NCBI GenBank assembly: GCA_040756475.1
Contig: JBFLZB010000003.1
Coordinates: forward strand, 3,965 to 67,964
Direction: 5' to 3'
Length of the DNA: 64,000 nucleotides
Origin: Thermodesulfobacteriota bacterium
GTDB lineage: Bacteria > Desulfobacterota > Deferrisomatia > Deferrisomatales > JACRMM01
Shown here: positions 351-53,058 of the stretch, one piece after another
Layout: every line of letters begins with the position of its first letter
How positions within the stretch are numbered: the first letter of the stretch is position 1
Notes under the pieces: model-generated
What the model was told of the DNA's origin: nothing
What the model saw: only the letters and a program-made list of their open reading frames with translations
Database searches by the model: none
Made by a program: the position numbers and the translations under genes

Positions 351-385
351 TTCACCCTTCACCCTTCACCCTTCACCCGTCACAG
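351..385. repeat. tandem heptamer array (TTCACCC)x4 + GTCACAG
   Basis: Read directly from the sequence. The array overlaps the TGA stop (380-382) of the epimerase gene. Confidence 0.9.
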
Positions 386-1315
386 GTTCTCCCGATACCA
401 CCCGATGGCCTCCTCCAGGCCTCGGCGGACGTCGTGGGAGGGCTCGTAGCCGAGAAGGCGGCGGGCGGCGCCGATGTCGGCCAGGCTGTGGCGCACGTCG
501 CCCGCCCGGGCAGCGGCGTAGACGGGGTGCCGGTCGCTGCCCAGGAGCCGCGCGATCTCCCGGTAGAGCCCGTTGAGGCTGATCCGCTCCCCGCACGCCA
601 CGTTGAAGACCTGGCCGCAGGCTTCGCGCGGAGCCGTGCAGGCCTTGAGGTTGGCCTGCACCACGTCGGCCACGTAGGTGAAGTCCCGGGTCTGCTCCCC
701 GTCTCCGTAGATCTCGGGGGAACACCCCGCCAGCAGGGCGGAGACAAACCGCGGGATGACCGCGGCGTAGGCGCCCGACGGGTCCTGGCGGCGCCCGAAG
801 ACGTTGAAGTACCGAAGGCTCACCGTCTCGAGGCCGTAGAGCTCGGAGAAGAGCCGGCAGTACTGCTCCCCGGTGAGCTTGGTCAGCGCGTAGGGGGAGA
901 GGGGGCGGGGGGCCATGGTCTCGACCTTGGGCAGGGTCGGGGTGTCCCCGTAGGCCGACGAGCTCGCCGCGAACACAAACCGCCTGGCTCCCGCGTCCCG
1001 GGCCGCCAGGAGCATCTGGAGGGTGCCCGTGACGTTGCACTCGTTGGAGAGGAGCGGGTTGGCCAGGCTGCGGGGCACCGAGCCCAGGGCCGCCTGGTGG
1101 AGCACGTAGTCCACCCCCTCGCAGGCCCGGGCGCAGGCCTCCGGGTCCCGCACGTCGCCCTCCAGGAACTCGGCCGCCTCCAGACCCCGCAGGTTCTCCC
1201 GCTTCCCGGTCAGGAAGTTGTCGAGCCCCCGCACCGTCTCCCCCCGGGCGAGCAGGGCCTCCACGAGGTTCGAGCCGATGAAGCCGGCGGCGCCGGTGAC
1301 GAGGAAGCGCGGCAT
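380..1315 (-). CDS. NAD-dependent nucleotide-sugar 4-epimerase, WbpP/TviC-like (UDP-GlcNAc / UDP-GlcNAcA 4-epimerase family)
   Basis: MPRFLVTGAAGFIGSNL Rossmann motif, SSSAYG and YALTK (YxxxK) extended-SDR motifs. Start moved to Met22 of the track ORF because the 21 upstream codons are heptamer-repeat read-through (PSPVTRHPSPVTRH). Confidence 0.85.
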   Translation of the reverse strand: MPRFLVTGAAGFIGSNLVEALLARGETVRGLDNFLTGKRENLRGLEAAEFLEGDVRDPEACARACEGVDYVLHQAALGSVPRSLANPLLSNECNVTGTLQMLLAARDAGARRFVFAASSSAYGDTPTLPKVETMAPRPLSPYALTKLTGEQYCRLFSELYGLETVSLRYFNVFGRRQDPSGAYAAVIPRFVSALLAGCSPEIYGDGEQTRDFTYVADVVQANLKACTAPREACGQVFNVACGERISLNGLYREIARLLGSDRHPVYAAARAGDVRHSLADIGAARRLLGYEPSHDVRRGLEEAIGWYRENL

Positions 1316-1324
1316 TTGGACTCC

Positions 1325-1380
1325 GTGACGGGTGACGGGTGACGGGTGACGAGTCACGGGTGACGGGTCACCCGTCACCC
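1325..1380. repeat. tandem heptamer array, 8 units (GTGACGG x3, GTGACGA, GTCACGG, GTGACGG, GTCACCC x2)
   Basis: Read directly. Orientation flips inside the array, giving a perfect 9-bp hairpin GGGTGACGG-gtcac-CCGTCACCC at 1358-1380. Confidence 0.9.
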
Positions 1381-1382
1381 CT

Positions 1383-2714
1383 TTACAACGACCAGTAGTA
1401 CAGCCCCAGGGCCTGGGCTTCGGCCCGGGAGTAGGCCATCTTCACGTCGGCAAACACGCCCCGGCCCCCGAATGGGCCGGAGCCGGGCCGGTAGAAGCCC
1501 TGGAGCCTCTCCAGGGTGAGCTCCCGGAAGGCCCGGTGGCTCACGGCGGCCACGATGGCGTCCACCGGACCGGCCTCCTCCAGCGCCAGGGGCCGCAACC
1601 CGAACTCGTGCTCGGCCTCGGCCGAGTCCACGAGCGGGTCGTGGGCCACCACGTCGACGCCGTACTCCCGCAGCTCGGCGATCACGTCCGCGACACGGGA
1701 GTTTCGAAGATCCGAGACGTTCTCCTTGAAGGTCAGTCCCAAAATCAGCACCCGGCTGCCCTGCACGGCCTTGCCGCAGCGGATCAGGCCCTTGACCACG
1801 TTCTCGGCCACGTGCTTGCCCATGCCGTCGTTGATGGTCCGGCCGGCCAGGATCACCTGGGGCTGGTAGCCGAGCTCCTGGGCCTTGTGGGTCAGGTAGT
1901 AGGGGTCCACGCCGATGCAGTGGCCGCCCACCAGGCCCGGCGTAAACGGCAGGAAGTTCCACTTGGTGCCCGCGGCCCGCAGCACCTCCCGGGTCTCGAT
2001 CCCCATGCGGCCGAAGATGACCGAGAGCTCGTTCATGAGGGCGATGTTGAGATCCCGCTGGGTGTTCTCGATCACCTTGGCGGCCTCGGCGGTCTTGATG
2101 GTGGGCGCCCGGTGCACCCCCGCCTCGACGACCAGCTCGTAGACCCGGGCCACCCGCTCCAGCGTCGCCGCGTCCTGGCCCGCCACCACTTTCACGATGC
2201 GCTCCAGGGTGTGCTCCCGGTCGCCGGGATTGATCCGCTCCGGGGAGTAGCCCACCGTGAAGTCCACCCCGCACCGAAGCCCCGACGCCCGTTCCAGGAT
2301 GGGAACGCACACCTCCTCGGTGACCCCCGGGTAGACCGTGGACTCGAAGACCACGGTGGCGCCGGGCGAGAGGTTCGCCCCCACCGCCCGGGAGGCCGCC
2401 TCTACGGGGGTGAGGTCGGGGCGCTTGTGCCGGTCGATGGGGGTGGGCACCGCCACCACCACGAACCCGGCGCGGCGCAGGTCCCCGGGGTTGGTGGTGT
2501 ACTGGATGCGGCCCGCCTCCACCTCGGCCTGGCTGAGCTCGCCGGTGGGGTCGATCCCCCTTCGCAGCGAGGCCACCTTGGCTTCGTTCACGTCGAAGCC
2601 GATCACCGGCACCTTCTTCCCAAACGCCACGGCCAGGGGCAACCCCACATACCCCAGCCCCACCACCGCCAGGCACGCCTCCCCGCGGGTCAGTTTCTCG
2701 ACGAAATCGGACAT
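1383..2714 (-). CDS. nucleotide-sugar 6-dehydrogenase, WbpO/TviB/VipA-like (UDP-GlcNAc 6-dehydrogenase family)
   Basis: MSDFVEKLTRGEACLAVVGLGYVGLPLAVAF N-terminal NAD fold and GGHCIGVDP catalytic Cys region. Paired with the WbpP/TviC-like epimerase downstream. Start set at Met11 of the track ORF. Confidence 0.85.
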   Translation of the reverse strand: MSDFVEKLTRGEACLAVVGLGYVGLPLAVAFGKKVPVIGFDVNEAKVASLRRGIDPTGELSQAEVEAGRIQYTTNPGDLRRAGFVVVAVPTPIDRHKRPDLTPVEAASRAVGANLSPGATVVFESTVYPGVTEEVCVPILERASGLRCGVDFTVGYSPERINPGDREHTLERIVKVVAGQDAATLERVARVYELVVEAGVHRAPTIKTAEAAKVIENTQRDLNIALMNELSVIFGRMGIETREVLRAAGTKWNFLPFTPGLVGGHCIGVDPYYLTHKAQELGYQPQVILAGRTINDGMGKHVAENVVKGLIRCGKAVQGSRVLILGLTFKENVSDLRNSRVADVIAELREYGVDVVAHDPLVDSAEAEHEFGLRPLALEEAGPVDAIVAAVSHRAFRELTLERLQGFYRPGSGPFGGRGVFADVKMAYSRAEAQALGLYYWSL

Positions 2715-2731
2715 GGATGTCTCCTCTAGCC

Positions 2732-2759
2732 CTTCACTTTTCACTCTTCACGCCCCACG
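2732..2759. repeat. degenerate heptamer array (CTTCACT TTTCACT CTTCACG CCCCACG)
   Basis: Read directly. Spans the stop codon (2741-2743) of the UDP-GlcA epimerase gene. Confidence 0.75.
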
Positions 2760-3709
2760 CCATGATACTCCCGATACCACTCCACGAACCGCGGGATGCC
2801 CTCCTCGATGGGGGTGGTGGGCTCCCAACCCAGGAGGCGCCGGCTCCGGGCGACGTCCGCGCAGGTGCGGGGCACGTCGCCGGGCTGCATGGGCAGGAGA
2901 TTGCGCCGGGCCTCCTTCCCGAGCGCCCGCTCCAGCACGCCGATGAAGTGTTCCAGCCGCACCGGGCGGTGGTTGCCCAGGTTGAGCACCTCGTCCCCCA
3001 GGGGGCGGTCCAGGGCAGCGAGCACGCCCGCCGTGATGTCGTCCACGTAGGTGAAATCCCGCTCCATCTCCCCCCGGTTGTACACGTCGATGGGCTGCCC
3101 CTCGAGGATCTGGCGGGTAAACGAGTACAGCGCCATGTCCGGGCGCCCCCAGGGCCCATAGACCGTAAAGAACCGCAGCCCCGTCGCGGGCAGGGCATAG
3201 AGGTGGTGGTAGGTGCGGGCCATGAGCTCGTTGGCCACCTTGGTGGCGGCGTACAGGCTCACGGGGCGGTCGACCCGGTCCTCCTCGGAAAAGGGCACCT
3301 TCTCGTTGGCCCCGTACACCGAGGAAGACGACGCGTACACGAGATTTCCCGTTCCCCGGTGGCGACACGCTTCGAGCACGTGGAGGAATCCCATGAGGTT
3401 CGCGTGGCCGTAGACCACCGGGTTTTCCAGGCTGTAGCGCACGCCCGCCTGGGCGGCCAGGTGGCAGACGGCGTCGAAGGGCCCGTCGTCGAAGGCCCGG
3501 GCGAGCCCGGCGGGGTCGGCCACGTCGGCCCGGTGAAACGAGAATCCCTCCCGGGGTGCCAGCAGCGCCAGGCGCGCCTGCTTGAGGCGCACGTCGTAGT
3601 AGTCGTTGAGGTTGTCGAGCCCTACCACGCGATCGCCGCGCCGCAGGAGCGCCCGGGCGACGTGGAACCCGATGAATCCGGCAGCGCCGGTGACGAGGTA
3701 GCGGGCCAT
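2741..3709 (-). CDS. UDP-glucuronate 4-epimerase-like extended SDR
   Basis: MARYLVTGAAGFIGFHVARALL, ASSSSVYG, YAATK and RFFTVYGPWGRPDMA motifs are typical of the Cap1J/LpsL UDP-GlcA epimerase family. Start at Met127 of the track ORF; the upstream part has no protein-like composition. Confidence 0.85.
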   Translation of the reverse strand: MARYLVTGAAGFIGFHVARALLRRGDRVVGLDNLNDYYDVRLKQARLALLAPREGFSFHRADVADPAGLARAFDDGPFDAVCHLAAQAGVRYSLENPVVYGHANLMGFLHVLEACRHRGTGNLVYASSSSVYGANEKVPFSEEDRVDRPVSLYAATKVANELMARTYHHLYALPATGLRFFTVYGPWGRPDMALYSFTRQILEGQPIDVYNRGEMERDFTYVDDITAGVLAALDRPLGDEVLNLGNHRPVRLEHFIGVLERALGKEARRNLLPMQPGDVPRTCADVARSRRLLGWEPTTPIEEGIPRFVEWYREYHGVGREE

Positions 3710-3899
3710 GGAGCCTTCCTGGGGTGCCGTGAGCAGACGACCGGCGGGATAGTAGCAGAGGCCGGCGCGCCCGATCCAGGCGAAACCCCCGGAACGCTTC
3801 GGGAAAGCGCGGCTTTCTTGACCCTCTGGAATCGCGGTTGCTATACTGCGCCGTTCTTCTCTGGCCGCCTCTTGGCGGCAGCCTCTCGGCAGGGGGTTC

Positions 3900-4433
3900 A
3901 TGGATCTTTTCGACGCCATCCGGTCCCGGCGCAGCGTGCGGGCCTTCCGCCCCGACCCCGTGCCGGGAGAGCTCCTGGAGCAGGTGCTGGAGGCGGCCCG
4001 CTGGGCTCCCTCGGGGCTCAACAACCAGCCCTGGCGGTTCCACGTGGTGCGAGACCCCGCGGTGCTCGAAGGGCTCGCGGGCCTCACCCGCTACGGCCAC
4101 GTGCTGCGCTCCGCCCGGGCGGCGGTTGCCGTGTTCCTGGACGGCGAGGCCTCCTACCACCGGGACAAGGACTGCCAGGGGATCGGAGCGTGCCTCCAGA
4201 ACCTTCTCCTGGCCGCCCACGGCCTCGGGCTGGGCGCTTGCTGGCTCGGGGAGATCCTCAACCGCCGGGAGGAGGTGGAGCGTCTCCTGGGCGCCCCCGC
4301 CGCCTGCGAGCTCATGGCGGTGGTGGCCCTGGGGTTCCCCGCACGGGAGAACCAGGGACGAGGCGAGCGCCTGCCCCTGGAGCATTTGATCGTGGGCACG
4401 AGCCCGCCCCCCCCGCCCCTGGAGGACGCATGA
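3900..4433 (+). CDS. nitroreductase family protein
   Basis: RRSVRAFRPDPVP...APSGLNNQPWRFHVV signature of the NAD(P)H-flavin nitroreductase fold. Confidence 0.8.
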   Translation: MDLFDAIRSRRSVRAFRPDPVPGELLEQVLEAARWAPSGLNNQPWRFHVVRDPAVLEGLAGLTRYGHVLRSARAAVAVFLDGEASYHRDKDCQGIGACLQNLLLAAHGLGLGACWLGEILNRREEVERLLGAPAACELMAVVALGFPARENQGRGERLPLEHLIVGTSPPPPPLEDA

Positions 4434-5860
4434 AGACGGCCATCGTGAAGTTCGGCACCTCGGGCTGGAGAGCGGTGCTGTGCGACGACTTCACCTTCGA
4501 GAACGTCCGGGTCGTGGTGCAGGCCGTCGCGGACCACCTCAAGGCCGGAGGGCTCGACGAGCGCGGCGTCCTGGTCGCCCACGACAGCCGGTTCCTGGGG
4601 CCGCGCTTCGCCCAGGTGGCGGCCGAGGTGCTGGCGGGCAACGGTCTCAAGGCCTTCCTGCCCGACCGCGACGTTCCCACCCCGGTGGTCTCCTTCGACA
4701 TCCTGCACCACCAGCGGGACGGCGCGCTCAACTTCACCGCCTCCCACAACCCCCCCGAGTACAATGGCATCAAGTTCAGCCCCGCCTGGGGTGGGCCCGC
4801 CCTGCCCGAGACCACCAGGGACATCGAGGTGCGGGCCAACGCGGGCATGGCCCGGGGCGAGTACCGCCGGCTCGGCTTCGAGGAAGGCCGGGACCAGGGG
4901 CTCATCGCCTCCCACGACCCGCGCCCCGCGTACCTGGACCGCCTGCGGGAGCTCGTGGACTTCGACCGCATCCGGGCTGCGGGGCTTCGACTGGCCCTGG
5001 ATCCCCTCTTCGGGACGGCCCGCGGGTACCTCGACCACCTCCTGGCCGAGGCGGGATGCGAGCTCCACATGGTGCACGACTACCCCGACCCCCTCTTCGG
5101 CGGGCGACCCCCGGAGCCCAGCGAGGCCCACATCCCCGAGCTCATCGACCTCACCGCACGGGATTCGGGCATCCGGCTGGGCCTGGCAACCGACGGCGAC
5201 GCCGACCGCTTCGGCATCGTGGACGCCGGCGGCCGGTACCTGGAGCCCAACTATTTCCTGGCGCTGCTCTTCGACTACCTGGTGCGCGACCGGGGCTTCG
5301 AGGGGGGTGCGGCCCGCAGCGTGGCCACGACCCACCTCCTGGATGCGGTGGCGCGCGACCTGGGCCGCGCAGTCCACGAGACCCCGGTAGGCTTCAAGTT
5401 CATCGGCGACCTGATCCGCAAGGGCCAGGTGGCCCTGGGGGGCGAGGAATCGGCCGGGCTCTCGATTCGAGGCCACGTGCCCGAGAAGGACGGCATCCTG
5501 GCCTGCTGCCTGGCGGCCGAGATGGTGGCCCGGCGGGGCAAGACTCTCTTCGCCCAACTGGAGGAGCTCTACGCCCGGGTGGGCCGGGTGCTCACCCGCA
5601 GGGTCAACCTGCACCTGACCCCGAGCCAGGAGCAGGCGCTGGCCGAGAAGCTCGCCCGGCCGCCCGCGTCCTTTGCCGGCCGAGGGGTCACCGAGACCGT
5701 GACCCTCGACGGCCACAAGTTCCTCCTGGAGGGCGGCGCCTGGCTCCTGGTGCGCAAGTCCGGCACCGAGCCCGTGGTACGCCTCTACCTGGAGGCTGCG
5801 GACGATCCGATCCTGGACGAGCTCACGACCGCCGGCCGGGACTGGATCCTCTCCGCCTAG
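4430..5860 (+). CDS. phosphoglucomutase/phosphomannomutase family protein
   Basis: MKTAIVKFGTSGWRAV, TASHNPPEYNGIKF (active-site Ser loop), ATDGDADRFG (Mg site) and GGEESAG motifs. The ATG overlaps the nitroreductase stop (ATGA). Confidence 0.9.
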   Translation: MKTAIVKFGTSGWRAVLCDDFTFENVRVVVQAVADHLKAGGLDERGVLVAHDSRFLGPRFAQVAAEVLAGNGLKAFLPDRDVPTPVVSFDILHHQRDGALNFTASHNPPEYNGIKFSPAWGGPALPETTRDIEVRANAGMARGEYRRLGFEEGRDQGLIASHDPRPAYLDRLRELVDFDRIRAAGLRLALDPLFGTARGYLDHLLAEAGCELHMVHDYPDPLFGGRPPEPSEAHIPELIDLTARDSGIRLGLATDGDADRFGIVDAGGRYLEPNYFLALLFDYLVRDRGFEGGAARSVATTHLLDAVARDLGRAVHETPVGFKFIGDLIRKGQVALGGEESAGLSIRGHVPEKDGILACCLAAEMVARRGKTLFAQLEELYARVGRVLTRRVNLHLTPSQEQALAEKLARPPASFAGRGVTETVTLDGHKFLLEGGAWLLVRKSGTEPVVRLYLEAADDPILDELTTAGRDWILSA

Positions 5861-5862
5861 CG

Positions 5863-5904
5863 TTCACCCTTCACCCTTCACCCTTCACTCTTCACCCGTC
5901 ACGA
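5863..5904. repeat. tandem heptamer array, 6 units (TTCACCC x3, TTCACTC, TTCACCC, GTCACGA)
   Basis: Read directly. Fills the gap between the PGM stop (5860) and the MBL gene start (5913). Confidence 0.9.
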
Positions 5905-5912
5905 GGCCCCCC

Positions 5913-6533
5913 ATGATCCTCGATATCCATCCCGTCGGCATGATCCAGGCCAACTGCTACATCCTGGGGGACGAAGAGACCCGGGAAGCCGTGGTGATCG
6001 ATCCCGGCGGCGACACCCCCATGCTGGTGCGGTCCCTGGAGACCCGCCGGCTCAAGCCCGTGGCGATCCTGGCCACCCACGGCCACTTCGACCACGTGGA
6101 GGGACTCGCCGCGCTCAAGCGCGCCACCGGGGCTCCGATCCACGTCCACAAGGGAGACCTGCCCCTGATCCAGGGTATGGCCGGACAGGGGCTCCTCTTC
6201 GGCGTGCGGGTCGAGGCGGCCCCGCCCCCCGACGCGTTCCTGGAGGACGGCGACGCCGTGCCCTTCGGCGGGCACAGCCTCCAGGTGCTCCACACCCCCG
6301 GCCACTCCCAGGGCTCGGTGAGCTACCTGATCGACAAGAGCGTCTTCGTGGGCGACCTCCTCTTTGCAGGCTCCATCGGGCGCACCGACCTCCAGGGGGG
6401 AGACTACGACACCCTCCTGCGCTCGGTGCGCGCAAAGATCTTCACCCTGCCCGACGACACCGTGGTCTACCCGGGCCACGGCCCCGCCACTACGGTGGGT
6501 ACCGAGAAGCGGTCGAATCCGTTCTTCCGGTAG
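5913..6533 (+). CDS. MBL-fold metallo-hydrolase (GloB/hydroxyacylglutathione hydrolase-like)
   Basis: THGHFDH metal motif, HTPGHSQGS, and a size of about 206 aa. Confidence 0.8.
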   Translation: MILDIHPVGMIQANCYILGDEETREAVVIDPGGDTPMLVRSLETRRLKPVAILATHGHFDHVEGLAALKRATGAPIHVHKGDLPLIQGMAGQGLLFGVRVEAAPPPDAFLEDGDAVPFGGHSLQVLHTPGHSQGSVSYLIDKSVFVGDLLFAGSIGRTDLQGGDYDTLLRSVRAKIFTLPDDTVVYPGHGPATTVGTEKRSNPFFR

Positions 6534-6542
6534 GTCAGGATC

Positions 6543-6577
6543 GTGAGACGTGAAGCGTGAGACGTGGAGCGTGAACC
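6543..6577. repeat. tandem heptamer array (GTGAGAC GTGAAGC GTGAGAC GTGGAGC GTGAACC)
   Basis: Read directly. Positions 6549-6562 are a perfect 14-nt reverse complement of 6688-6701. Confidence 0.9.
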
Positions 6578-6680
6578 GTCTTCCGAAAGCGCCGAGGTAC
6601 CGCACGTGAGACAAGCGACTCGCAGGATCGCCACCCCCCTTCCCACCGCCTGTTTCAAGCTGCACGCCCGAGGATGGGCG

Positions 6681-6701
6681 TTTCACCTCTCACGCTTCAC
6701 G
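6681..6701. repeat. heptamer array in inverted orientation (TTTCACC TCTCACG CTTCACG)
   Basis: Read directly. It is the inverted partner of the 6543-6577 array and lies 17 nt upstream of the coaBC ATG. Confidence 0.85.
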
Positions 6702-6717
6702 TTCGGCCGGCACTGAC

Positions 6718-7977
6718 ATGCTCAGAGACCGTGAGATCATCCTCGGGGTCGCGGGGGGCATCGCCGCCTACAAGAGCGTGCTCCTGTGCCGCGACCTCAC
6801 CCAGGCAGGCGCCAACGTCCACGTGGTGATGACGGAAAATGCAACCCAGTTCGTCACGCCGCTCACCTTCCAGACCATCTCGGGAAATCCCGTCACCCAC
6901 CAGCTCTTCGCCCTGTTTCAGGGGTCGGAGATCGGCCACGTGACCCTGGCCGACCGCGCCCACGCCATGGTGGTGGCGCCCGCCACGGCAAACCTCCTGG
7001 GCAAGGTGGCCAACGGCATCGCCGACGACTTCCTCTCCACCATGATCATGGCCACGCGGGTGCCGGTGGTCTTCGCACCGGCCATGAACGTGGTGATGTG
7101 GGAGAGCCGGGCGGTACAGCGAAACGTGGCACTGCTGGGCGAAGCCGGCTACCACCTGGTGGGGCCGGTACCCGGGGAGCTGGCCTGCGGCGTCACGGGC
7201 AAGGGGAAGATGGCCTCGCCCGCAGAGATCATCGACGCCCTCGAGATCATCCTCTCCCCCAAGGACCTGGCCGGGGAGCGCGTGCTCGTCACAGCGGGGC
7301 CGACCCTGGAGCCCATCGACCCGGTGCGGTTCATCTCCAACCACTCGTCCGGGAAGATGGGCTACGCCCTGGCCCGCGCCGCGGTGCGCCGGGGGGCCCA
7401 GGTCACCCTGGTCACGGGGCCCACGGCGCTGGCGTCCCCCCTGCACGTGCGCGTGGTGCGCGTGACCACCGCGCGAGAGATGCACGAGGCGGTGCTGCGG
7501 GAGGCGCAGGAGGCCACGGTCGTCCTCAAGGCGGCGGCGGTGTGCGACTGGCGGCCCACCGCCTCGGCCGCACAGAAGATCAAGAAGCGGCAGGGCAGCC
7601 CCCCCTCCCTTCTCCTCGAACCCAACCCCGACATCCTCCGGGACCTGGGGGTACACAAGCCCCCCGGGCAGCTCCTCATCGGATTTGCCGCCGAGACCAC
7701 CGAGCTCGAGGCCAACGCCCGGGCGAAGCTCGCCGAGAAGAACCTGGACGCGGTGGTGGCCAACGACGTGACCGCTCCGGGGGCGGGGTTCCTGGTCGAC
7801 ACCAACGCCGTTCGCATCTTCACGGCCGACGGCGCCGAGATCGGGGTACCCCTCACCACCAAGGAGCGCGTGGCCGACCGGGTGCTGGGCGTGGTGGTAA
7901 AGCTGCGCACCGGTTCCCAGAAGCAGGTGTGGGAGCCCCCGGCGGAGCCCTTGAGATTCTGGCCGGAAGAGCCGTGA
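6718..7977 (+). CDS. coaBC: bifunctional phosphopantothenoylcysteine decarboxylase / phosphopantothenate-cysteine ligase
   Basis: [12 protein letters not shown] flavoprotein N-domain, PAMN, and a C-terminal [13 protein letters not shown]-binding ligase motif. Confidence 0.9.
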
Positions 7978-7987
7978 AGGATCCAAC

Positions 7988-9331: not shown

Positions 9332-9336
9332 CGGAC

Positions 9337-9385
9337 CATCCGTCCCCCGTTACCCGTTACCCGTTACCCGTTACCCGTCCCCCGT
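9337..9385. repeat. tandem heptamer array, 7 units (CATCCGT, CCCCCGT, TACCCGT x4, CCCCCGT)
   Basis: Read directly. Lies between the ugd stop (9331) and the UXS start (9398). Confidence 0.9.
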
Positions 9386-9397
9386 CTCGAGGCCCCC

Positions 9398-42532: not shown

Positions 42533-42710
42533 GCCGGTTCCCCCGAGAGGAGTGGAGGCTCTGGGACGGCCGTTTGTAGCACGCACGCAAAGACCGTTGC
42601 AATTCGGGGCGGCGCCGTCGGGTGCCGCACAACCGCACCCCGCCCCTGACGGGAGTGCCGTGGCTCGCCCCCCGCGGGAATCGGGACCGAGAACGGGGTA
42701 GTGTCCGTCT

Positions 42711-42734
42711 TCGATTTCGATTTCGATCTCGATC
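42711..42734. repeat. tandem hexamer array (TCGATT x2, TCGATC x2)
   Basis: Read directly. About 180 nt upstream of the asnB start. Confidence 0.85.
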
Positions 42735-42782
42735 TCTGGCATACAGGGCGGGGGGAGCCCCGGCCTGCGCGCGAAGTCCCGG

Positions 42783-45066: not shown

Positions 45067-45238
45067 CGCGTCTCCTCCTTTTGTCGGCAGCCGCCGGAGC
45101 ATATGCCGCCGGGCCGCCGGCCTGTCAAGGAAACCAACCTCGAGAGCTCACCACCAAGACACCGGGACACGAAGGGAATCGGACTTGCGGCGTGGACGAA
45201 GACCGTTCGCGGCGCGGGCGGAGCGCCCTCCACACCCC

Positions 45239-45268
45239 CTGTGGATAGCCTGTGGACGGCCCTGTGGA
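45239..45268. promoter_or_regulatory. three direct repeats of CTGTGGA spaced 11 and 12 bp
   Basis: CTGTGGAtagc CTGTGGAcggcc CTGTGGA, read directly, about 175-200 nt upstream of nfnA. One-helical-turn spacing is typical of direct-repeat-binding regulators. Confidence 0.3.
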
Positions 45269-45335
45269 TACCCCCGTCCTCCCCAGCGCCGGCGCGGCCC
45301 GGCCGTGGAGTGCACAGACTTTCATCATGGCATAA

Positions 45336-46562: not shown

Positions 46563-48169
46563 GGCTCTTCGGGCCTCCCGAGTTTGGCGTAGAGGGTGTT
46601 TCGGTTGATCCCCAGGAGCCGCGCGGCCTGGAGCCGGACCCCCTGGGCCCGGGCCAGGGCCTGCCCCAGGAGCACCCGCTCCACCCGCTCCACCACGGCG
46701 CGGTAGACGCCCTCGGGCGGGGGCGCCTCGAAGAGCTCCCCCGCGAGCCGCGCCACCGCCGATTCCAGATCTCCCGATGCCGCGGGCGCTTGCGCCGCAG
46801 CCGAGGACCCCTCGGCGAAGAAGAGCGGCAGATCTCGAGCGTCGATCGCGGGTCCCCGGGCCAGCACCACCGCCCGCTCCACCGCGTTCTCCAGCTCCCG
46901 CACGTTTCCGGGCCAGTCATACCGCACCAGGAGCTCGGCGGCCTCGGGAGTGAACCCCTCAAAGGATTTCTGGTTCTCCTCGGAAAACCGTTGGAGGAAG
47001 TGGTGGGCCAGGAGCGGCACGTCCTCCCGGCGTTCCCGGAGGGGGGGCAGGTGGATGGGGACCACGTTGAGGCGGTAGTAGAGGTCCTCGCGAAAGCGGC
47101 CCTCCCGCACCTCCCGCGCCAGGTCCCGGTTGGTAGCGGCGATCACCCGCACGTCGATGCGCCGGGTCTCGTGGCCCCCCAGCCGCTCGAGCTCCCGCTC
47201 CTGGAGCACCCGAAGGAGCTTTACCTGGAGCTCCAGCGGGATCTCTCCTATCTCGTCGAGGAAGATCGTACCCCCGTCGGCGAGCTCGAAGCGCCCGGTC
47301 TTGCGCGCCACCGCCCCGGTAAACGCGCCCCGCTCGTGCCCGAAGAGCTCGCTCTCCAGGAGCGTCGCAGGAAGGCTCGCGCACGAGAGCCGCACGAAGG
47401 GCTTCTGGGCCCGATCGGAGTTGAAGTGGATGGCCTTGGCCACGAGCTCCTTGCCCGTGCCGCTCTCCCCCGTGAGCAGCACGGTGGCACGGCTCTTGGC
47501 CACCAGGTGCACCTGCTCGTACACCGCAAGCATGAGCGGGCTCGTGCCCACCATGTTGTCCAGGCGGTAGGCCCCGTCCAGGGCCCGGCGCAGGCGCCGG
47601 TTCTCGTCGGCGAGCTCCGCCTTCTCCCGGCGCACCATCTGCTGGACCCGCACCGCCTGGGCCACCACTCCCGCAACGATGGACAGGAGCCGCAGGTCTT
47701 CTTCCAGATCCGCCTCTCCGGCCGAGAGGCGGTCTGCGCTCAACACCCCCACTGTGCGGTTGCCGACCTTGACCGGCACGCACAGAAAGGCCACCCGGGA
47801 GCGATCGAGGTCCGCCCGGGCCCCGGTGCGGTCGAGAAAGAGGGGCTCGGCGCCGATGCTCGGGACCAGCAGGGGTTCGCCGGTCTCGAGCACCCGCCCC
47901 ATGACGCCTTCTCCCACCCGGTATCGCCCCCGCTGCTTCTCCGCCTGGGTCAAGCCGTGGGCCGCCTCGATGGCCAGCTCACCGCTCTCCGGGTCCACCA
48001 GCGCCAGGGTCCCCCGCTGCATGCCCAGCTCCTCCGCCAGGATCGAGAGCGTGGCTTCCACCACCTGGCGCAGGTCCAGGGACGCGGACACGGCCTGGCT
48101 CACCCGGTACAGGGCCCGAAGCTCGCGAAACGCCTTGGCTCTCTTGGACATGGGCTCCCGAACGGGCAC
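46559..48169 (-). CDS. sigma-54-dependent Fis-family transcriptional activator with N-terminal GAF domain
   Basis: GAF-like N-terminus, AAA+ core GESGTGKE...GAFTGA...GGTIFLDEIG...ATNRDL, and a C-terminal Fis HTH (AARLLGINRNTLYAKL). GTG start at 48169; an alternative ATG at 48151 has GGGAG 3 nt upstream. Confidence 0.85.
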   Translation of the reverse strand: MPVREPMSKRAKAFRELRALYRVSQAVSASLDLRQVVEATLSILAEELGMQRGTLALVDPESGELAIEAAHGLTQAEKQRGRYRVGEGVMGRVLETGEPLLVPSIGAEPLFLDRTGARADLDRSRVAFLCVPVKVGNRTVGVLSADRLSAGEADLEEDLRLLSIVAGVVAQAVRVQQMVRREKAELADENRRLRRALDGAYRLDNMVGTSPLMLAVYEQVHLVAKSRATVLLTGESGTGKELVAKAIHFNSDRAQKPFVRLSCASLPATLLESELFGHERGAFTGAVARKTGRFELADGGTIFLDEIGEIPLELQVKLLRVLQERELERLGGHETRRIDVRVIAATNRDLAREVREGRFREDLYYRLNVVPIHLPPLRERREDVPLLAHHFLQRFSEENQKSFEGFTPEAAELLVRYDWPGNVRELENAVERAVVLARGPAIDARDLPLFFAEGSSAAAQAPAASGDLESAVARLAGELFEAPPPEGVYRAVVERVERVLLGQALARAQGVRLQAARLLGINRNTLYAKLGRPEEP

Positions 48170-48189
48170 ACAGGGGGCGGGACGGCGCG

Positions 48190-48219
48190 ATTATACGGAG
48201 CCCGCGCAAAAGCGGTCAA
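48190..48219 (-). promoter_or_regulatory. candidate sigma-70 promoter (TTGACC-N18-TATAAT) for the sigma-54 activator gene
   Basis: The minus strand reads cgTTGACCgcttttgcgcgggctccgTATAATcg, with a perfect -10. It lies in the 84-nt gap between the response-regulator stop and the activator start. Confidence 0.45.
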
Positions 48220-48253
48220 CGCGACCTGGCCGCCCAGAATCCCGTACCCGCCC

Positions 48254-48826
48254 TCACACCCTGCGGACTCGGGGTGAGGAAGAGATGGCGACGAGCACCT
48301 CTTCCAGCCTGCGGTGCAGCGCCGCGCCGTCGGTGCCCTTGTTCAGGTAGAACGCCGGGGCCAGCTCGTCGAGCAGGGGGCGCAACGTGGGATCGAGGCG
48401 CCGGCCCGACAGGAAGAGCACTCCAGCGGGCGCAGCCCCGAAGCCCCTCTCCACGGCCCGCAGGGCCACGGCGGCGTGCAGACCGTTGAGACGGGGCATG
48501 AGGAGGTCCAAGATCGCCAAGGAGACGGGGCGCTTCTCGCACAGGGCGGCGGTGGCCTTCTCCACCGCCTCGGCACCGTCCCGGGCGGCAACGACCTCGC
48601 CCGCCAAGCGCCGGGAGCGCAGGGTCTCTTCCAGTGCCTTGAGAAAGAACGCGGAGTCGTCGGCCACCAGGACCCGGCGAAACCGCACCAGTCCCTCCCG
48701 GCCCGCGGACTTGGCCAGGGGCATCCCGCACTGGACGCAGCGAACCTCCCGGGTGCCGCTCTCCAGGTCCACGTCATAGGTCTCGACGCTCTCGCCACAC
48801 GCCGCGCAGGCCGCTCGCTCACCCAT
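48254..48826 (-). CDS. single-domain response regulator (REC) with N-terminal CxxC...CxxC zinc ribbon
   Basis: MGERAACAACGESV...VRCVQCG, then RRVLVADDSAFFLKAL...LAILDLLMPRLNG (phospho-acceptor Asp region)...K. The ATG overlaps the polA stop (ATGA). Confidence 0.75.
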   Translation of the reverse strand: MGERAACAACGESVETYDVDLESGTREVRCVQCGMPLAKSAGREGLVRFRRVLVADDSAFFLKALEETLRSRRLAGEVVAARDGAEAVEKATAALCEKRPVSLAILDLLMPRLNGLHAAVALRAVERGFGAAPAGVLFLSGRRLDPTLRPLLDELAPAFYLNKGTDGAALHRRLEEVLVAISSSPRVRRV

Positions 48827-51414
48827 CAGTGCGCCTCGTACCAGTTGCGCCCGGCGCCTGCCTCCACCACCAGCGGCACCCGCAGCGATCGCGCCCCCTC
48901 CATGGCCTCCACCACCCGGGTGCGGACGGCATCCACCTGGGGGGCCGCCACCTCGAAGACGAGCTCGTCGTGCACCTGCAAGATCAAGCGGGCATCGAGG
49001 CCCGCCTGCCCCAGTGCCCGGCTCGCCCCCACCATGGCCGTCTTGATCAGGTCCGCCGCGGTCCCCTGGAGGGGGGTATTGATCGCCATCCGCTCCCCGA
49101 ACTCCCGCTGCGCGCGGTTTCGGGACGTGAGCTCGGGGATGGGGCGGCGCCGGCCGAAGAGCGTCTCGGCGTACCCCCGGGACCGTGCCCCCTCCACGAG
49201 CTCCGCGAGAAACGCCTGCACGGACGGGAACTGTCGGAAGTAGGCCTGGATCATCTTCCGGGCGGCCTCCCGGGTAATGCCGAGCTGACGGGCCAGGCCA
49301 AACGGGCTCATGCCGTAGAGGATGCCGAAGTTCACGGTCTTGGCTTCCCGGCGCATCCGGGCGTCCACCGCCGCGAGCGGCACGCTGAAGATCCGGCTCG
49401 CGGTCTCCGCGTGGACGTCGCGGCCTGCCCGGAAGACCTCGACCAGGGCCGGATCGCCGCTCAGGTGGGCCAAGATGCGAAGCTCCACCTGGGAGTAATC
49501 GGCCGAGAGGAGCCGGCAACCCTCCGCCGCCACGAAGGCCTCCCTGATGCGGCGCCCCTCTTCGCCCCGTACGGGGATGTTCTGGAGATTGGGGGTGCTC
49601 GAGCTCAGGCGCCCGGTGGCGGCCACCGTCTGGTGGAACCGGGCATGGATGCGGCCCGTGGCCGGATCGACGAGACCGGGCAGCACGTCGATGAAGGAGT
49701 TCTTGAGCTTCGAGAGGCTGCGGTGCTCCAGCACCACCCGGGGCAGGGGGTGGTCCAGGGCGAGCTCCTCCAGGACCGAGGCGTCGGTGGAGTAGCCCGT
49801 GGCGGTCTTCTTGCCCACCGGGAGCTTGAGCTTCTCGAAGAGGATCTCCCCGAGCTGGCGGGGGCTCTGGGGGTTGAACTCCTCGCCGGCCAGGGCGAAG
49901 AGCTTGCGCTCCAGCTCGGCGAGCCGCCCGGCGTACTCTCTACTGAGCTGCGCCAACGCCCTCGAGTCCACCCGTACACCGCGGGTCTCCATGCCCGCCA
50001 GCACGGGGATCAGGGGATTTTCGATCTCCCGATAGAGCGCTAGGAGCCCCGCCTCGGCAAGCTCCGCCTCCAGCCGCACAGCCAGCGCAAGGACCGTGGC
50101 CGCCCTGCCCGGGGTCCGCTCGGCGGGTTCGGGGGACGGACCCGCCCCTTCCCCAGCCAGGCCCCGCTCCCGGGCCAGGTCTTCCAGGGGGTAGGCCCGC
50201 CGGCCGGGAGAGAGCAGGTACGCCGCCACCTCCGTGTCGAGCCGGATCCCCTCGAGCGCCTCCCCCGCCCGCCCAAGCGCGACACAGGCCGCCTGGAGCC
50301 CGTGGCCCACTACCGGCACGGCCGGATCGGCGACCAGTCTCCCCCAGGGCTCCGGCAGCCCCCCGGGGCCCGGGGCCGGCACGGCCGCCTTCTCGGCTCC
50401 CCAGGCCAGCCCCCAGGGCTCGCCCGCCCCACCCGGGACCACCGCGACCCAGGCAACGGGTCGCCCGTGCCCCGGCCCTCCGGTCGCCGGCGTCGGTCCC
50501 ACCGCGTTCCCCTCTGGGGGCGGCCGAGGGGGCTGCTCCGCAGCCACCTCTCCAGGGGAACTTTCCCCCTCCAGGCCCAGGTCGCGCAGGAAGCGGTGGA
50601 ACTCCAGTTCCCGCAGGAGCGCCGCGAGACGCGGGCGGTCCTGGGACCCGGGGCGCAGACCCTCCGGTTGGACCTCCAGGGGCACCGCGGTGTCGATGGT
50701 CACCAGGGGCCGGTTCTCGAGGGCGCGCTGCCCGTGCTCCCGCAGGGCCTCGCCTCGCTTGCCCCGGATTTCCGACGCCCGTGCCACGATCTCCTCGAGG
50801 CTTCCGTACTCCTCGAGGAGCTTCGCGGCGGTCTTGGGCCCGATGCCGGGTACACCCGGGATGTTGTCCACCGCGTCCCCCGTGAGGGCCAGCACGTCCA
50901 CCACCCGGTCGGGACCCACCCCAAACTTCTCCGCCACCTCCCCGGGACCGGTCACCTTGTCGCGCATGGTATCCAGCAGCCGGATGCGGGGCCCCACGAG
51001 CTGGCAGAAGTCCTTGTCCCCCGTGACCAGCGTCACCTCCTTCCCGGCATCGGCCAGGCGGCGGGCCAGGGTGCCGAGCACGTCGTCGGCCTCCACTCCC
51101 GGCACGGTGAGCACCGGTATGCCCAGGGCGGCCAGGGCCCTGTGGACGTAGGGGATCTGGATCAGCAGGTCGTCCGGGGTCGCCTCGCGATTGGCCTTGT
51201 ACTCGGGGAACAGGGCGTGGCGCGCCGTGGGCCCAGGGGGGTCGAAGACCACGGCGAACCCCTCGGGCGCCTGCTCGCGCAATACCCGAAAGACCATGGA
51301 GAGGAAGCCGAAGACCACGTGGGTGGGGAGCCCCCCCGCGGTGCGAAACCCTTGAAGGGCGTGGTAGGCGCGGTAGAGGAGGTTGGTGCCGTCGATCAGG
51401 TAGTACCCCCCCAC
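48826..51414 (-). CDS. polA: DNA polymerase I
   Basis: YLIDGTNLLYRAYHA 5'-nuclease N-terminus, C-terminal RRxAKxxNFGxxYG and QVHDELVFE polymerase motifs. Proposed GTG start at 51414 (Val94 of the track ORF), 5 nt after the upstream gene's stop. Confidence 0.9.
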   Translation of the reverse strand: MGGYYLIDGTNLLYRAYHALQGFRTAGGLPTHVVFGFLSMVFRVLREQAPEGFAVVFDPPGPTARHALFPEYKANREATPDDLLIQIPYVHRALAALGIPVLTVPGVEADDVLGTLARRLADAGKEVTLVTGDKDFCQLVGPRIRLLDTMRDKVTGPGEVAEKFGVGPDRVVDVLALTGDAVDNIPGVPGIGPKTAAKLLEEYGSLEEIVARASEIRGKRGEALREHGQRALENRPLVTIDTAVPLEVQPEGLRPGSQDRPRLAALLRELEFHRFLRDLGLEGESSPGEVAAEQPPRPPPEGNAVGPTPATGGPGHGRPVAWVAVVPGGAGEPWGLAWGAEKAAVPAPGPGGLPEPWGRLVADPAVPVVGHGLQAACVALGRAGEALEGIRLDTEVAAYLLSPGRRAYPLEDLARERGLAGEGAGPSPEPAERTPGRAATVLALAVRLEAELAEAGLLALYREIENPLIPVLAGMETRGVRVDSRALAQLSREYAGRLAELERKLFALAGEEFNPQSPRQLGEILFEKLKLPVGKKTATGYSTDASVLEELALDHPLPRVVLEHRSLSKLKNSFIDVLPGLVDPATGRIHARFHQTVAATGRLSSSTPNLQNIPVRGEEGRRIREAFVAAEGCRLLSADYSQVELRILAHLSGDPALVEVFRAGRDVHAETASRIFSVPLAAVDARMRREAKTVNFGILYGMSPFGLARQLGITREAARKMIQAYFRQFPSVQAFLAELVEGARSRGYAETLFGRRRPIPELTSRNRAQREFGERMAINTPLQGTAADLIKTAMVGASRALGQAGLDARLILQVHDELVFEVAAPQVDAVRTRVVEAMEGARSLRVPLVVEAGAGRNWYEAH

Positions 51415-51418
51415 GGGC

Positions 51419-51826
51419 TCACTCCACTCGGCAGACGGCCGTGAGGAGCAGAGCCCCGGCCGCGTCGCGCACCTCCACCGTCCAGTCCCCCCGGTGCTCC
51501 GGCAGGACGGTCTTGGTGCTCCAGGTCCGCCACGTGGGACCCTGCACCGCCAGGGGAATCGAAGCCACCTCGCGGCCGTCGTAGATCCAGACGTGGCGCA
51601 CCTCGGAGGCCCCCTGGACCCCCGCCACCTGGGTAAAAAAGGCCAGCGTTCCCACGTCGGCCGGAAAGACCTGGGCTTCCCCCACGGGCTCACGCGCCTC
51701 GATCCCCCGGGCGAAGGCGTGGCGGACCACCGAAATCTCCGCCCGCGCCGCTGCCGGGGCGAGCAGGCAGCCTAGAAGGAGGACGGCCGAGAGGAGCCCT
51801 CGGGCGGGACCACGTCTGCTCTTCAT
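51419..51826 (-). CDS. secreted small protein, DUF2914-like
   Basis: Signal peptide MKSRRGPARGLLSAVLLLGCLLAPAAARA, then ...VRHVWIYDGREV....L.V.GPTWRTWSTK.....RGDWTVEV.DA.G.LL. The family assignment is from memory of the pattern. Confidence 0.6.
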   Translation of the reverse strand: MKSRRGPARGLLSAVLLLGCLLAPAAARAEISVVRHAFARGIEAREPVGEAQVFPADVGTLAFFTQVAGVQGASEVRHVWIYDGREVASIPLAVQGPTWRTWSTKTVLPEHRGDWTVEVRDAAGALLLTAVCRVE

Positions 51827-51870
51827 TGGGTTCCTCCTCCGCGGGCGGCGGCGGGCCGCCGGGGTTTGGT

Positions 51871-51960
51871 TCGATCCGTATCGGGATCGGGATCGGGATC
51901 CGTTTGGGTTCTGGATCGATACCGATACCGATAGCGATAGCGATCCCGATTCTAATCGGG
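51871..51960. repeat. hexamer-phased tandem array (15 units: TCGATC CGTATC GGGATC x3 ... ATACCG x2 ATAGCG x2 ATCCCG ...), GATC-rich
   Basis: Read directly. Six GATC sites within about 75 nt. The array occupies most of the 142-nt gap between hemB and the DUF2914-like gene. Confidence 0.9.
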
Positions 51961-51968
51961 GACCCGGG

Positions 51969-52943
51969 TCACCCCTGCAGGACCCTGGCGGCCTCGGGGG
52001 CGAAGTAGGTGAGGATCATGTCCGCACCCGCCCGTTTGATGGAGAGCAGGCTCTCCATCATGAGCCCCTTGCCGTCACCCCAGCCCAAGCGCTCCATGGC
52101 CTTCACCATGGCGTACTCCCCGCTCACGTTGTAGGCGGCGGTGGGCATGGCAAACGTGTCCTTGACCCGGCGGATGACGTCCAGGTACGGGAGCGCGGGT
52201 TTCACCATCACGATGTCGGCCCCCTCCGCCACGTCGAGCTCCACCTCTCGGATGGCCTCGTCGCCGTTGGCGGGGTCCATCTGGTAGGAGCGCCGGTCGC
52301 CGAACTGGGGCGGCGACTCGGCGGCGTCCCGGAAGGGCCCGTAAAAGGTGCTCGCAAACTTGGCCGCGTAGGCCATGATGGGGATCTGTCCGAAGCCCTC
52401 GGCATCGAGCGCGGCCCGCAGTGCCCCCACCCGGCCGTCCATCATGTCGGAGGGGGCGACCAGGTCGGCCCCCGCCCGGGCGTGGGAGACCGCTTCCCGG
52501 GCCAGGAGCTCCAGGGTGGGGTCGTTGGCCACGTCGCCCCCCTCGATGACCCCGCAGTGGCCGTGGTCGGTGTACTCGCACAGGCACACATCGGTCATGA
52601 CGCAGAGCTCGGGCAGGGCGTCCTTGAGCGCGCGCACCGCCCGCTGCACGATCCCGTCGTCGGCCCAGGCGCCCGACCCCACGGCGTCCTTGTGGTCGGG
52701 AATGCCAAACAGGATCACCGAGGGCACCCCCAGCCCCCAGGCGGCCCGGGCCTCCCGTACCGCCTCGTCCACCGAGAGCTGGAACTGCCCCGGCATGCTC
52801 CCGATGGGATTGCGGATGCCCGTGCCCTCCCGGACGAAGAGCGGGTAGATGAAGTCCGAAGGCGAGAGCGCCGTCTCCCGCACCATGCGGCGCAGGGTCT
52901 CGTTCTTGCGCAAGCGGCGCATGCGAAGGGTGGGGAACGTCAT
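51969..52943 (-). CDS. hemB: porphobilinogen synthase (5-aminolevulinate dehydratase)
   Basis: [19 protein letters not shown]...DFIYPLFV N-terminus, [14 protein letters not shown] metal site and active-site Lys regions ([10 protein letters not shown]). Start at Met32 of the track ORF. Confidence 0.9.
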
Positions 52944-53015
52944 GGGAACCTCGTGGGAACCTCGTGGGTTGGGGGTTGCAGGTTGCGCGTTGGGGGTCGC
53001 GGGTTGTGGGTTGGG
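52944..53015. repeat. 2 x 11-mer (GGGAACCTCGT) abutting the hemB start, followed by 7 heptamers (GGTTGGG GGTTGCA GGTTGCG CGTTGGG GGTCGCG GGTTGTG GGTTGGG)
   Basis: Read directly. On the minus strand each 11-mer reads ACGAGGTTCCC, so the hemB SD-like GAGG is duplicated. Confidence 0.9.
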
Positions 53016-53023
53016 CCTGCGTG

Positions 53024-53058
53024 CCCACTCCGTCACTCGTCAGCACTCACTTTTCACT
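53024..53058. repeat. degenerate heptamer array (CCCACTC CGTCACT CGTCAGC ACTCACT TTTCACT)
   Basis: Read directly. Lies between the fixX stop (53110) and the hemB upstream repeats. Confidence 0.75.

Follow-up and report, generated by a model that had tools for sequence, protein, structure and literature searches.

Why would a bacterial genome string seven-nucleotide repeats along the edges of its genes, and what determines which strand of the repeat faces a start codon and which a stop codon? These questions are raised by a 64,000-nt stretch from the metagenome-assembled genome of an uncultured Thermodesulfobacteriota bacterium of the order Deferrisomatales (contig JBFLZB010000003.1 of GenBank assembly GCA_040756475.1), which we analyzed at its full length and refer to as the window. 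Its gene junctions carry tandem heptanucleotide arrays of several unit types. When every array is read on the sense strand of the adjacent gene, the arrays follow a simple rule: the strand that precedes a start codon is poor in G, and the strand that follows a stop codon is the G-rich complement. We judge the chance to be somewhat better than even that these arrays are hypermutable simple sequence repeats (SSRs) whose orientation is filtered at the level of the transcript, the G-poor strand being kept ahead of ribosome-binding sites and the G-rich strand behind stops.

We detected period-7 arrays in the window with Tandem Repeats Finder (TRF), a lag-7 self-match scan, and direct reading. TRF called period-7 repeats at 350-383 (CTTCACC x4.9), 1325-1368 (GTGACGG x6.3), 2732-2751, 5863-5902 (TTCACCC x5.7), 6542-6579, 9346-9385, 20518-20541, 20572-20590, and 52966-53013. 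Weaker arrays at 6681-6701 and 53024-53058, with TCAC or TCAG in phase, were seen on direct reading. All eleven arrays reported by a first-pass annotation of this DNA were thus found at the coordinates that it gave, but they lie at 8 junctions rather than the eleven that it had counted, and the final 14 nt (1367-1380) of what it had read as a single GTGACGG array at 1325-1380 are in fact two inverted units. Related repeats absent from its list were present at 276-299 (CGCCACN) and, as a 14-nt repeat, at 3855-3890.

The periodicity is specific and far in excess of chance. Three in-phase copies of TCAC or GTGA are found 12 times with a period of 7 and not once at periods 4-6 and 8-11, and a lag-p scan of the window returned 6 strong segments at p = 7 against 0-3 at each other period from 4 to 12. 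Each of 20 dinucleotide shuffles of the window held 0-1 strong period-7 segments, and only 5 were found across 80 unrelated bacterial loci (1.33 Mb), a control set drawn from a contig search with the window UDP-glucose dehydrogenase in which the best match was only 63% identical. Expressed as density, these counts are ~94 per Mb in the window and 3.8 per Mb in the control loci, a 25-fold difference. The arrays form three clusters, at 0.3-9.4 kb, 20.5 kb, and 53 kb, and they are absent from 21-52 kb and 54-64 kb of the window.

Placement at gene boundaries, which had been claimed from the letters alone, was borne out by a gene map built with a home-made codon-score caller and checked by Pfam: 7 of 8 arrays fall in the intergenic 10% of the window, as non-coding head-to-tail heptamers at gene ends. 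The flanking genes are co-directional at all 8 array-bearing junctions. Six of these junctions sit within a nucleotide-sugar and polysaccharide-export cluster at 0.3-15 kb; the array-linked genes as a whole (sugar nucleotide enzymes, hemB, larB, larE, CoaBC) are of unrelated function.

Start-proximal arrays end 4-29 nt before the start codon, and C equals or exceeds G on the sense strand in 17 of 18 of them, with a typical composition of about 0.5 C and at most 0.17 G. Their G-poor units include CCGTCAC, CCTTCAC, CCGTTAC, TTCACCT, CCCAACC, CAACGGA, CAACTGA, and GACCGTA, and they run directly into the Shine-Dalgarno sequence, as in ...GTCAC GAGG CCCCCC ATG and ...GTCAC GGAG TCCAA ATG. On the minus strand, six CCGTCAC units (1325-1366) end 9 nt before the ATG of a NAD-epimerase gene and pass straight into a GGAG Shine-Dalgarno, and CAACGGA x3.4 (20518-20541) ends 4 nt before the ATG of larB (AIRC-domain). 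On the plus strand, (TTCACCC)x3 TTCACTC TTCACCC GTCAC (5863-5904) fills the 52-nt spacer between a PGM gene and a metallo-beta-lactamase (MBL) gene and ends at GAGG-N6-ATG; TTCACCT CTCACGC TTCACG (6681-6701) lies 16 nt before the CoaBC ATG; and (CCCGTTA)x4 CCCGTCC CCCGTC (9337-9386) occupies the spacer between a second UDP-glucose dehydrogenase gene and a UXS-type gene, ending at GAGG-N5-ATG. Upstream of hemB on the minus strand, 52966-53015 reads CCCAACC CACAACC CGCGACC CCCAACG CGCAACC TGCAACC CCCAACC, and the gap from array to ATG consists of two copies of an 11-nt unit containing the Shine-Dalgarno (52944-52965).

Two observations about leaders stand beside these arrays. The 11-nt unit, ACGAGGTTCCC, is duplicated directly before hemB (52933-52968) and present as a single copy in the 97%-identical relative L209, and the first codons of hemB (ATGACGTTCCC) look like a diverged third copy. 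The 14-nt (2x7) repeat, GGCNGCCTCTYGGC, lies on the plus strand at 3855-3890 in the 5' leader of a nitroreductase gene, downstream of a promoter-like TTGACC-18-TATACT site (3818-3890 for site and repeat together).

Stop-proximal arrays, which abut or overlap the stop codon, have more G than C on the sense strand in 9 of 9 cases, and their units (GTGACGG, GTGAAGG, GTGAGAC, GTCCGTT, CGGTCGT) are the G-rich complement. On the minus strand, the first unit of GTGACGG (GTGAAGG)x4 (350-385) holds the TGA stop (380-382) of the NAD-epimerase gene (380-1315, by Pfam); (GGGTGAC)x2 (1367-1380) lies 2 nt past the stop of the UDP-glucose dehydrogenase gene and forms a perfect 14-bp hairpin with the adjoining CCGTCAC units; GTGGGGC GTGAAGA GTGAAAA GTGAAGG (2732-2759) spans the TGA (2741-2743) of a UXS-like epimerase gene; and GTGACGG x2.7 (20572-20590) overlaps the final codons and the TGA (20574-20576) of a larE-like gene. 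Degenerate G/A-rich heptamers (GAAGTGA AAAGTGA GTGCTGA CGAGTGA CGGAGTG, 53024-53058, minus strand) follow the stop of a Fer4/ETF-QO ferredoxin gene by ~50 nt. On the plus strand, GTGAGAC GTGAAGC GTGAGAC GTGGAGC GTGAACC (6543-6577) begins 9 nt after the MBL stop, and the array at 6681-6701 is its inverted partner. Long spacers hold a G-rich array at the stop-codon edge and a G-poor array at the start-codon edge. The 209-nt spacer of the 350-385 array also contains degenerate C-rich heptamers (CGCCACA CGCCACG CGCAACG, 276-299, minus strand). The gene beyond that spacer, downstream of the epimerase (3-170, minus strand), encodes an MBL-fold protein matching Pfam Anti-Pycsar_Apyc1 (PF23023), below cutoff in the truncated window copy and unflagged as weak for the 254-aa orthologues in the relatives L204 and L205.

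It had been noted that the G-rich strand is not consistently the sense strand. It does vary, but by a consistent rule: behind a stop it is the sense strand, and ahead of a start it is the antisense strand. Over the first 10 kb of the window, arrays reverse their orientation when the genes change strand, which ties the rule to transcription and not to the direction of replication, and this flip rules out replication-strand bias as the cause.

Two features noted in the first-pass annotation have simple causes. Read from the sequence, GTGAMGG repeats contain TGA in all three frames within 3 units, since each unit holds a TGA and seven leaves a remainder of one on division by three; an incoming open reading frame (ORF) therefore ends in the array, which explains why arrays abut stops. 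CCKTCAC repeats, by the same reading, contain zero stops in any frame, and ORF finders consequently extend N-termini through them. The inflated N-termini noted in the first-pass annotation are accordingly present in the ORF translations as array-encoded extensions, among them PSPVTRHPSPVTRH and VTGDPSPVTRHPSPVTRH.

The arrays are hypermutable, and they are abundant across Deferrisomatales. In a JGI contig from another sample (L001), 99.3% identical to the window over 5.8 kb, an exact 14-bp gap at 1325-1338 corresponds to two GTGACGG units fewer, and 14 extra nt are carried in the 14-mer repeat near 3855-3880; this is the slipped-strand copy-number variation that had been predicted, and orthologous junctions differ as well. 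In L202, whose CoaBC is 97% identical, the MBL gene is preceded by (CCGTCAC)x9 in place of the (CCTTCAC)x5 of the window, the UXS-type gene by CCGTCAC units in place of CCGTTAC, and CoaBC by a CCGTCAC array; an inverted pair, GTCCGTN then CAACNGA, separates CoaBC from the second UDP-glucose dehydrogenase gene, two genes that are 10 nt apart in the window. In L204 and L205 (77-78% identity), the MBL-CoaBC gaps are 4-5 nt and genes overlap elsewhere; in L205, CCGTTCA-type units are nonetheless found at the epimerase junction, ManC is preceded by (CAACGGA)x3, and a GTCCGTG/CAACTGA pair is present. At the hemB junction of relatives with 97% identity, GTGAGAC/GTGAAGC units are followed by TAACTGA CCACTCA CCACTGA and then by the Shine-Dalgarno.

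More distant members of the order use other units. The window HemB is ~90% identical to those of Deferrisomatales metagenome-assembled genomes, 87% to that of Deferrisoma palaeochoriense, and 86% to that of D. camini. A D. camini-like locus has a hemB junction of only 25 nt with GACCGTA/GACCGAC arrays elsewhere, and the D. palaeochoriense isolate has (GCGGTCY)x6 and similar arrays. Across seven distinct Deferrisomatales loci (~165 kb), array density is ~115 per Mb. The arrays are present in independent JGI, NCBI, ENA, and Logan assemblies, and they break them: the L001 contig ends inside the 5863 array, the contigs of the 97%-identity hemB relatives begin inside an array, and other assemblies likewise break within arrays. 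In practical terms, the arrays disrupt metagenome assemblies, inflate ORF predictions, and can serve as strain markers.

Beyond the lineage, exact matches to (CCKTCAC)x4 were sought in metagenome contigs and were present in at least 120, with GC contents from 31 to 72%. Among the matches listed, nine are eukaryote-type, telomere-like contigs (L093, L105, L109, L130, L142, L184, L186, L189, L194), dominated by (CCCTAAA)n with CCCTGAA, CCCTTCA, and GGGTGTA variants, and were set aside; as (CCCTTCA)n is also a telomere-repeat variant in such contigs, searches by sequence alone mix kingdoms. The remaining listed matches are mostly GC-rich and prokaryote-like, many with several different heptamer arrays. 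With crude gene calls, 2 of 77 (CCKTCAC)n arrays among the matches listed lie inside called genes, and the orientation bias is in the direction of the rule (post-stop G 15 versus C 5; pre-start C 4 versus G 1; 19 versus 6 together). Copy numbers among these matches are 4:61, 5:13, 6:17, 7:9, 8:7, and on, a distribution whose reading is limited by the search floor of four. One contig from an unrelated organism (L187, 35% GC) shows a two-arm layout twice, at 619-695 and 2620-2778, with GTGAGTG/GTGAAGA followed by CACCCGT/CACGCGT.

What could impose such a rule? We tested the RNA structures that the arrays could form. The RNA of 1316-1382 folds into a perfect 14-bp stem (minimum free energy [MFE], -36.8; z, -3.6), and 6543-6577 pairs with 6681-6701 in the predicted fold (z, -3.1). 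The other 9 of 11 junction RNAs are no more stable than their shuffles, and the hemB arms are not complementary; with only 2 of 11 folding significantly better than shuffles, a hairpin is ruled out as the common feature. Spacers with a single arm are instead nearly unstructured: the PGM-MBL leader reaches -3.1 kcal/mol over 66 nt, and the 9337-9386 array is unpaired in the MFE fold. Among 52 scorable start regions, one of which carries a G-type array, the 60-nt leaders with a G-poor array (n = 6) average -11.5 kcal/mol against -19.9 for those without (n = 46) (p = 0.02), and the ribosome-binding site is predicted to be unpaired with a probability of 0.575 where a G-poor array is present and 0.44 where it is not (same groups; p = 0.007). 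At the gathering threshold, Rfam found only three tRNAs in the window (57552-57633, 63839-63911, and 63936-64000, the last cut by the window end) and no known RNA family at any array. A terminator scan of 1-12 kb found no intrinsic terminators at arrays, and terminator-like sites there were not above shuffle expectation, which argues that the arrays are not disguised terminators.

These results suggest a scenario in which arrays would grow, shrink, and change unit through replication slippage and concerted evolution, and would persist only where a transcribed spacer separates co-directional genes, and there only in an orientation acceptable to the transcript. Directly 5' of a ribosome-binding site, the mRNA would carry the G-poor strand (CCGUCAC, CCUUCAC, CCGUUAC, CAACGGA, CCCAACC), which would be unable to fold on itself, so that the Shine-Dalgarno and start codon could stay open in a genome of 70% GC, and which would offer no spurious Shine-Dalgarno-like or G-rich structures. 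Directly 3' of a stop, the mRNA would carry the G-rich complement (GUGACGG, GUGAAGG, GUGAGAC), which would place a UGA in every frame. In spacers that have both arms, the G-rich arm could pair with the downstream arm to form an intercistronic hairpin. We infer that the rule acts on the RNA or on its translation, and that a G-poor leader may bring a benefit and not simply be the orientation that does least harm.

Several points weigh against this scenario or its stronger form. A neutral filter for the least harmful orientation fits the pattern as well as a benefit does, and the gaps of 4-5 nt at the same junctions in relatives indicate that the arrays are dispensable. Two repeats in the window sit poorly with the rule: junction 2732-2759 places its G/A-rich strand 17 nt upstream of the UDP-glucose dehydrogenase ATG, and the 276-299 repeat is ~105 nt from the next start. 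The folding comparison depends on only 6 array leaders and on home-made gene starts. A few related units are reused at independent loci, and the metagenome matches show an apparent four-unit excess (above a search floor of four); this reuse and this excess hint at sequence-specific or G-quadruplex (G4)-type constraints, for which the scenario offers no account.

We also considered a bolder version, that the arrays are a selected, composition-defined gene-expression module for GC-rich operons. Such a module would comprise a G-poor ribosome standby or entry site, or a dock for a single-strand-binding protein in a 7-nt register, together with a G-rich cap, combining all-frame stops with structure, after the upstream cistron; the GGGNATC repeats (Xanthomonas, Nostoc) and the TAACTGA repeats (Beggiatoaceae) would work in the same way. 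We regard it as unlikely. If true, it would supply a single explanation for why heptamers are the commonest long SSRs in bacteria.

Among the rival explanations, the one that survives best, although we rate it unlikely too, is that the arrays are G4 or i-motif regulators, with G3-N4 arrays folding on the G-rich DNA or RNA (and an i-motif on the C strand) to modulate transcription or translation. The arrays were originally described as placing GGG every 7 nt, which holds for ~6 of the 11; five, among them those with GTGAGAC, CTTCACT, and TCCGTTG units, lack G3 tracts altogether. The strict motif (G3-N1-7 x4) is matched by only 3 of 11 arrays, against 32 other matches in the window, mostly inside genes. 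G4-aware folding predicted an antisense-strand G4 in 3 of the 4 leader arrays folded (5863, 9346, hemB) and zero G4 in any sense-strand array transcript. The position and strand rule is the same as for G4-forming GGGNATC repeats (PMC4692102), and 61 of the (CCKTCAC)n metagenome matches listed have four units versus 13 with five, but that excess is cut off by the search floor. Moreover, relatives keep the rule with units incapable of G4 formation (CAACTGA, GTCCGTT, GACCGTA). As a unifying idea for these arrays, the G4 or i-motif is not supported.

Somewhat less probable is a post-transcriptional regulon governed by a trans-acting protein of cold-shock, S1, or CsrA-like type that would bind single-stranded RNA or DNA over a footprint of 7 nt, with the arrays as its tandem sites. 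The CsrA core ANGGA is contained in CAACGGA, arrays abut the Shine-Dalgarno, and units recur: the 350 and 5863 arrays share CCTTCAC and have CCGTCAC at their 3' ends, and CCGTCAC is found again at 1325 and 20572. The CAACTGA, CCACTGA, and TAACTGA units directly upstream of starts in relatives have the placement described by MacGregor, who proposed such regulation for TAACTGA repeats, as did Aklujkar for heptamer sites in Geobacter. At shared junctions, however, relatives of 97% identity differ freely in unit but agree in strand composition, which argues for composition over sequence recognition; at least four unit subfamilies coexist in the window, and the array-linked genes, from the sugar nucleotide enzymes to hemB, larB, larE, and CoaBC, have no functional relation. 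The survival of the rule through complete turnover of the unit sequence argues that what matters is strand composition, and neither a G4 motif nor a specific word. Mimicry of the anti-Shine-Dalgarno or Shine-Dalgarno (a possible likeness of CCUUCACC to the 16S 3' end and of GGUGA to a Shine-Dalgarno) was set aside because most unit types in relatives do not fit.

We think it improbable that the C-rich, G-poor arrays serve as Rho loading (rut) sites, which would make transcription of the downstream cistron depend on translation and so tune operon polarity. Unstructured C-rich, G-poor RNA is the textbook rut signature, and pre-start arrays provide 40-66 nt of unstructured RNA with at least 0.5 C and at most 0.17 G in intercistronic spacers of co-directional genes. 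Some arrays, however, are only ~21-28 nt, below a full Rho footprint, CAACGGA and GACCGTA units do not favor C over G, and the G-rich post-stop arrays are left unexplained by this model.

More improbable again are contingency loci, in which copy number would switch surface-polysaccharide genes on and off by phase variation. Copy number does differ among strains, and 6 of 8 junctions lie in the nucleotide-sugar and polysaccharide-export cluster, but the arrays sit upstream of Shine-Dalgarno sequences or past stops, with none inside ORFs, between -35 and -10 elements, or between Shine-Dalgarno and ATG, so that unit changes alter neither the reading frame nor that spacing. The hemB, larB/larE, and CoaBC genes are housekeeping genes, and Rehm and colleagues were likewise negative for GGGNATC repeats (PMC4692102). 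It is scarcely credible that the arrays are assembly artefacts, given that they recur in independent JGI, NCBI, ENA, and Logan assemblies, or miniature mobile elements with heptamer terminal inverted repeats, since, despite three junctions with inverted arms around a unique core, the spacer cores are single copy in the window and ~2.3 Mb of other loci compared, unlike repetitive extragenic palindromes (REP) or miniature inverted-repeat transposable elements (MITE).

Other repeats were noted in the window and in a relative. A second intergenic SSR family consists of hexamers with a CGAT/GATC core at 42710-42736 (TTCGAT/CTCGAT), 51880-51900 ([ATCGGG]x3.5), and 51917-51950 ([CGATAC/CGATAG]x5.7), of which the second and third lie shortly past the hemB stop. 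In a 269-nt spacer between a tRNA-guanine transglycosylase gene and a DHODB-like gene, 45237-45274 holds three tandem 11-12 nt units (CCCTGTGGATAG, CCTGTGGACGG, CCCTGTGGATAC), each with a DnaA-box-like TGTGGATA(A). In D. palaeochoriense (L214), the intergenic regions 792-1166 and 7030-7517, of which one precedes ETF-QO and the other follows polA, have in common a long, near-identical stretch whose inverted arms read GCGGCATCCGGC...GCCGGATGCAGC, a dispersed repeat distinct from the heptamers.

How, then, do these arrays relate to repeats already in the literature? The first-pass annotation was aware of no described family in this kind of genome. At the level of kind, such repeats have been described (PMC4692102, PMC4679880, PMC2700814); for Deferrisomatales the statement stands, as a literature search for the exact array units and for Deferrisoma repeats gave nothing relevant. 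By unit sequence, the window arrays do not match and so fall outside the GGGNATC, TAACTGA, STRR, and Gmet_H4 families. In behavior, they are like the GGGNATC and TAACTGA repeats.

The analogy to the cyanobacterial STRR heptamers that had been drawn for these arrays was right, in that both are intergenic tandem heptamers with several unit types per genome. The STRR units, reportedly described by Mazel and co-workers in 1990, are said to be CCCCAGT (STRR1), TTGGTCA (STRR2), and CAACAGT (STRR3), and we know of no published start/stop strand rule for them. The window units and phylum differ, as STRR are repeats of heterocystous cyanobacteria. STRR are also mentioned in the study of the GGGNATC repeats (PMC4692102).

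In Geobacter metallireducens, Aklujkar and colleagues (2009) described Gmet_H4## elements (four GGGACCG repeats at 49 sites) and class-3 sites of five MTYCTGA repeats (PMC2700814). The H4 elements have a fixed four units, can be aligned by BLAST, and also occur inside genes (PMC2700814), whereas in the window both array length and unit vary, and the arrays do not lie inside genes. Tandem heptamers at many loci are common to both, and the GACCG core is shared only with Deferrisoma proper, through its GACCGNN/GCGGTCY units. The best matches of the window UDP-glucose dehydrogenase are in Desulfuromonadales (63%), and the matches include Geobacteraceae. We take the window lineage and Geobacter to be members of the same class, Desulfuromonadia.

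A broader frame is the long-SSR survey of Mrazek, Guo, and Shah (2007), as summarised in later papers (PMC4679880, PMC4692102). In those summaries, among long SSRs with units of 5-11 nt, heptanucleotides are the commonest class in most prokaryotic genomes, especially the large, GC-rich genomes of non-pathogens; polymerase slippage was proposed as their source, and repeats whose unit length is not divisible by three are kept out of coding DNA. Near-perfect heptamer iterations above chance, exclusion from coding DNA, and whole-unit polymorphism are all found in the window arrays. As presented there, however, the class is a statistical one without a strand or position rule, and Deferrisomatales were not among the genomes then available.

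The TAACTGA direct repeats described by MacGregor (2015) in marine Beggiatoaceae, cyanobacteria, and Bacteroidetes occur in 2-6 copies, mostly in one orientation, a few nt upstream of the start codons of genes without a common theme (PMC4679880). The window arrays similarly end 4-29 nt before starts in one orientation, and relatives carry CAACTGA, CCACTGA, and one TAACTGA unit there. The TAACTGA unit itself is absent from the window, where a GGAG or GAGG Shine-Dalgarno follows the array, whereas the TAACTGA array replaces it. The window arrays also differ in having many units and a complementary post-stop class.

The closest likeness is to the GGGAATC and GGGGA(C/T)T heptamers that Rehm and colleagues (2015) described genome-wide in Xanthomonas and Nostoc, strongly non-coding and between co-directional ORFs (PMC4692102). 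The G-rich strand of those repeats is antisense within ~50 nt upstream of an ORF and sense within ~50 nt past a stop; they vary in length and sequence between close relatives, the linked genes have no functional theme, and inverted pairs can form hairpins (PMC4692102). The window arrays share the tandem heptamers, many with G3, the position and strand rule (17 of 18 and 9 of 9, at 8 co-directional junctions), the junction-level variation among close relatives, the unrelated gene functions, and the hairpin-capable inverted pairs. They differ in unit (GGGTGAM, GGGTAAC, GTGAGAC, TCCGTTG, GGTTGSG), in lineage, in that about half have no G3, so that G4 capacity is not general, and in showing no clear four-unit preference in the window. 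The Deferrisomatales arrays are a new-lineage example of intergenic heptanucleotide SSRs already described, and not a new kind of element; they extend such repeats to another phylum-level lineage, one with cultured members in Deferrisoma camini and D. palaeochoriense.

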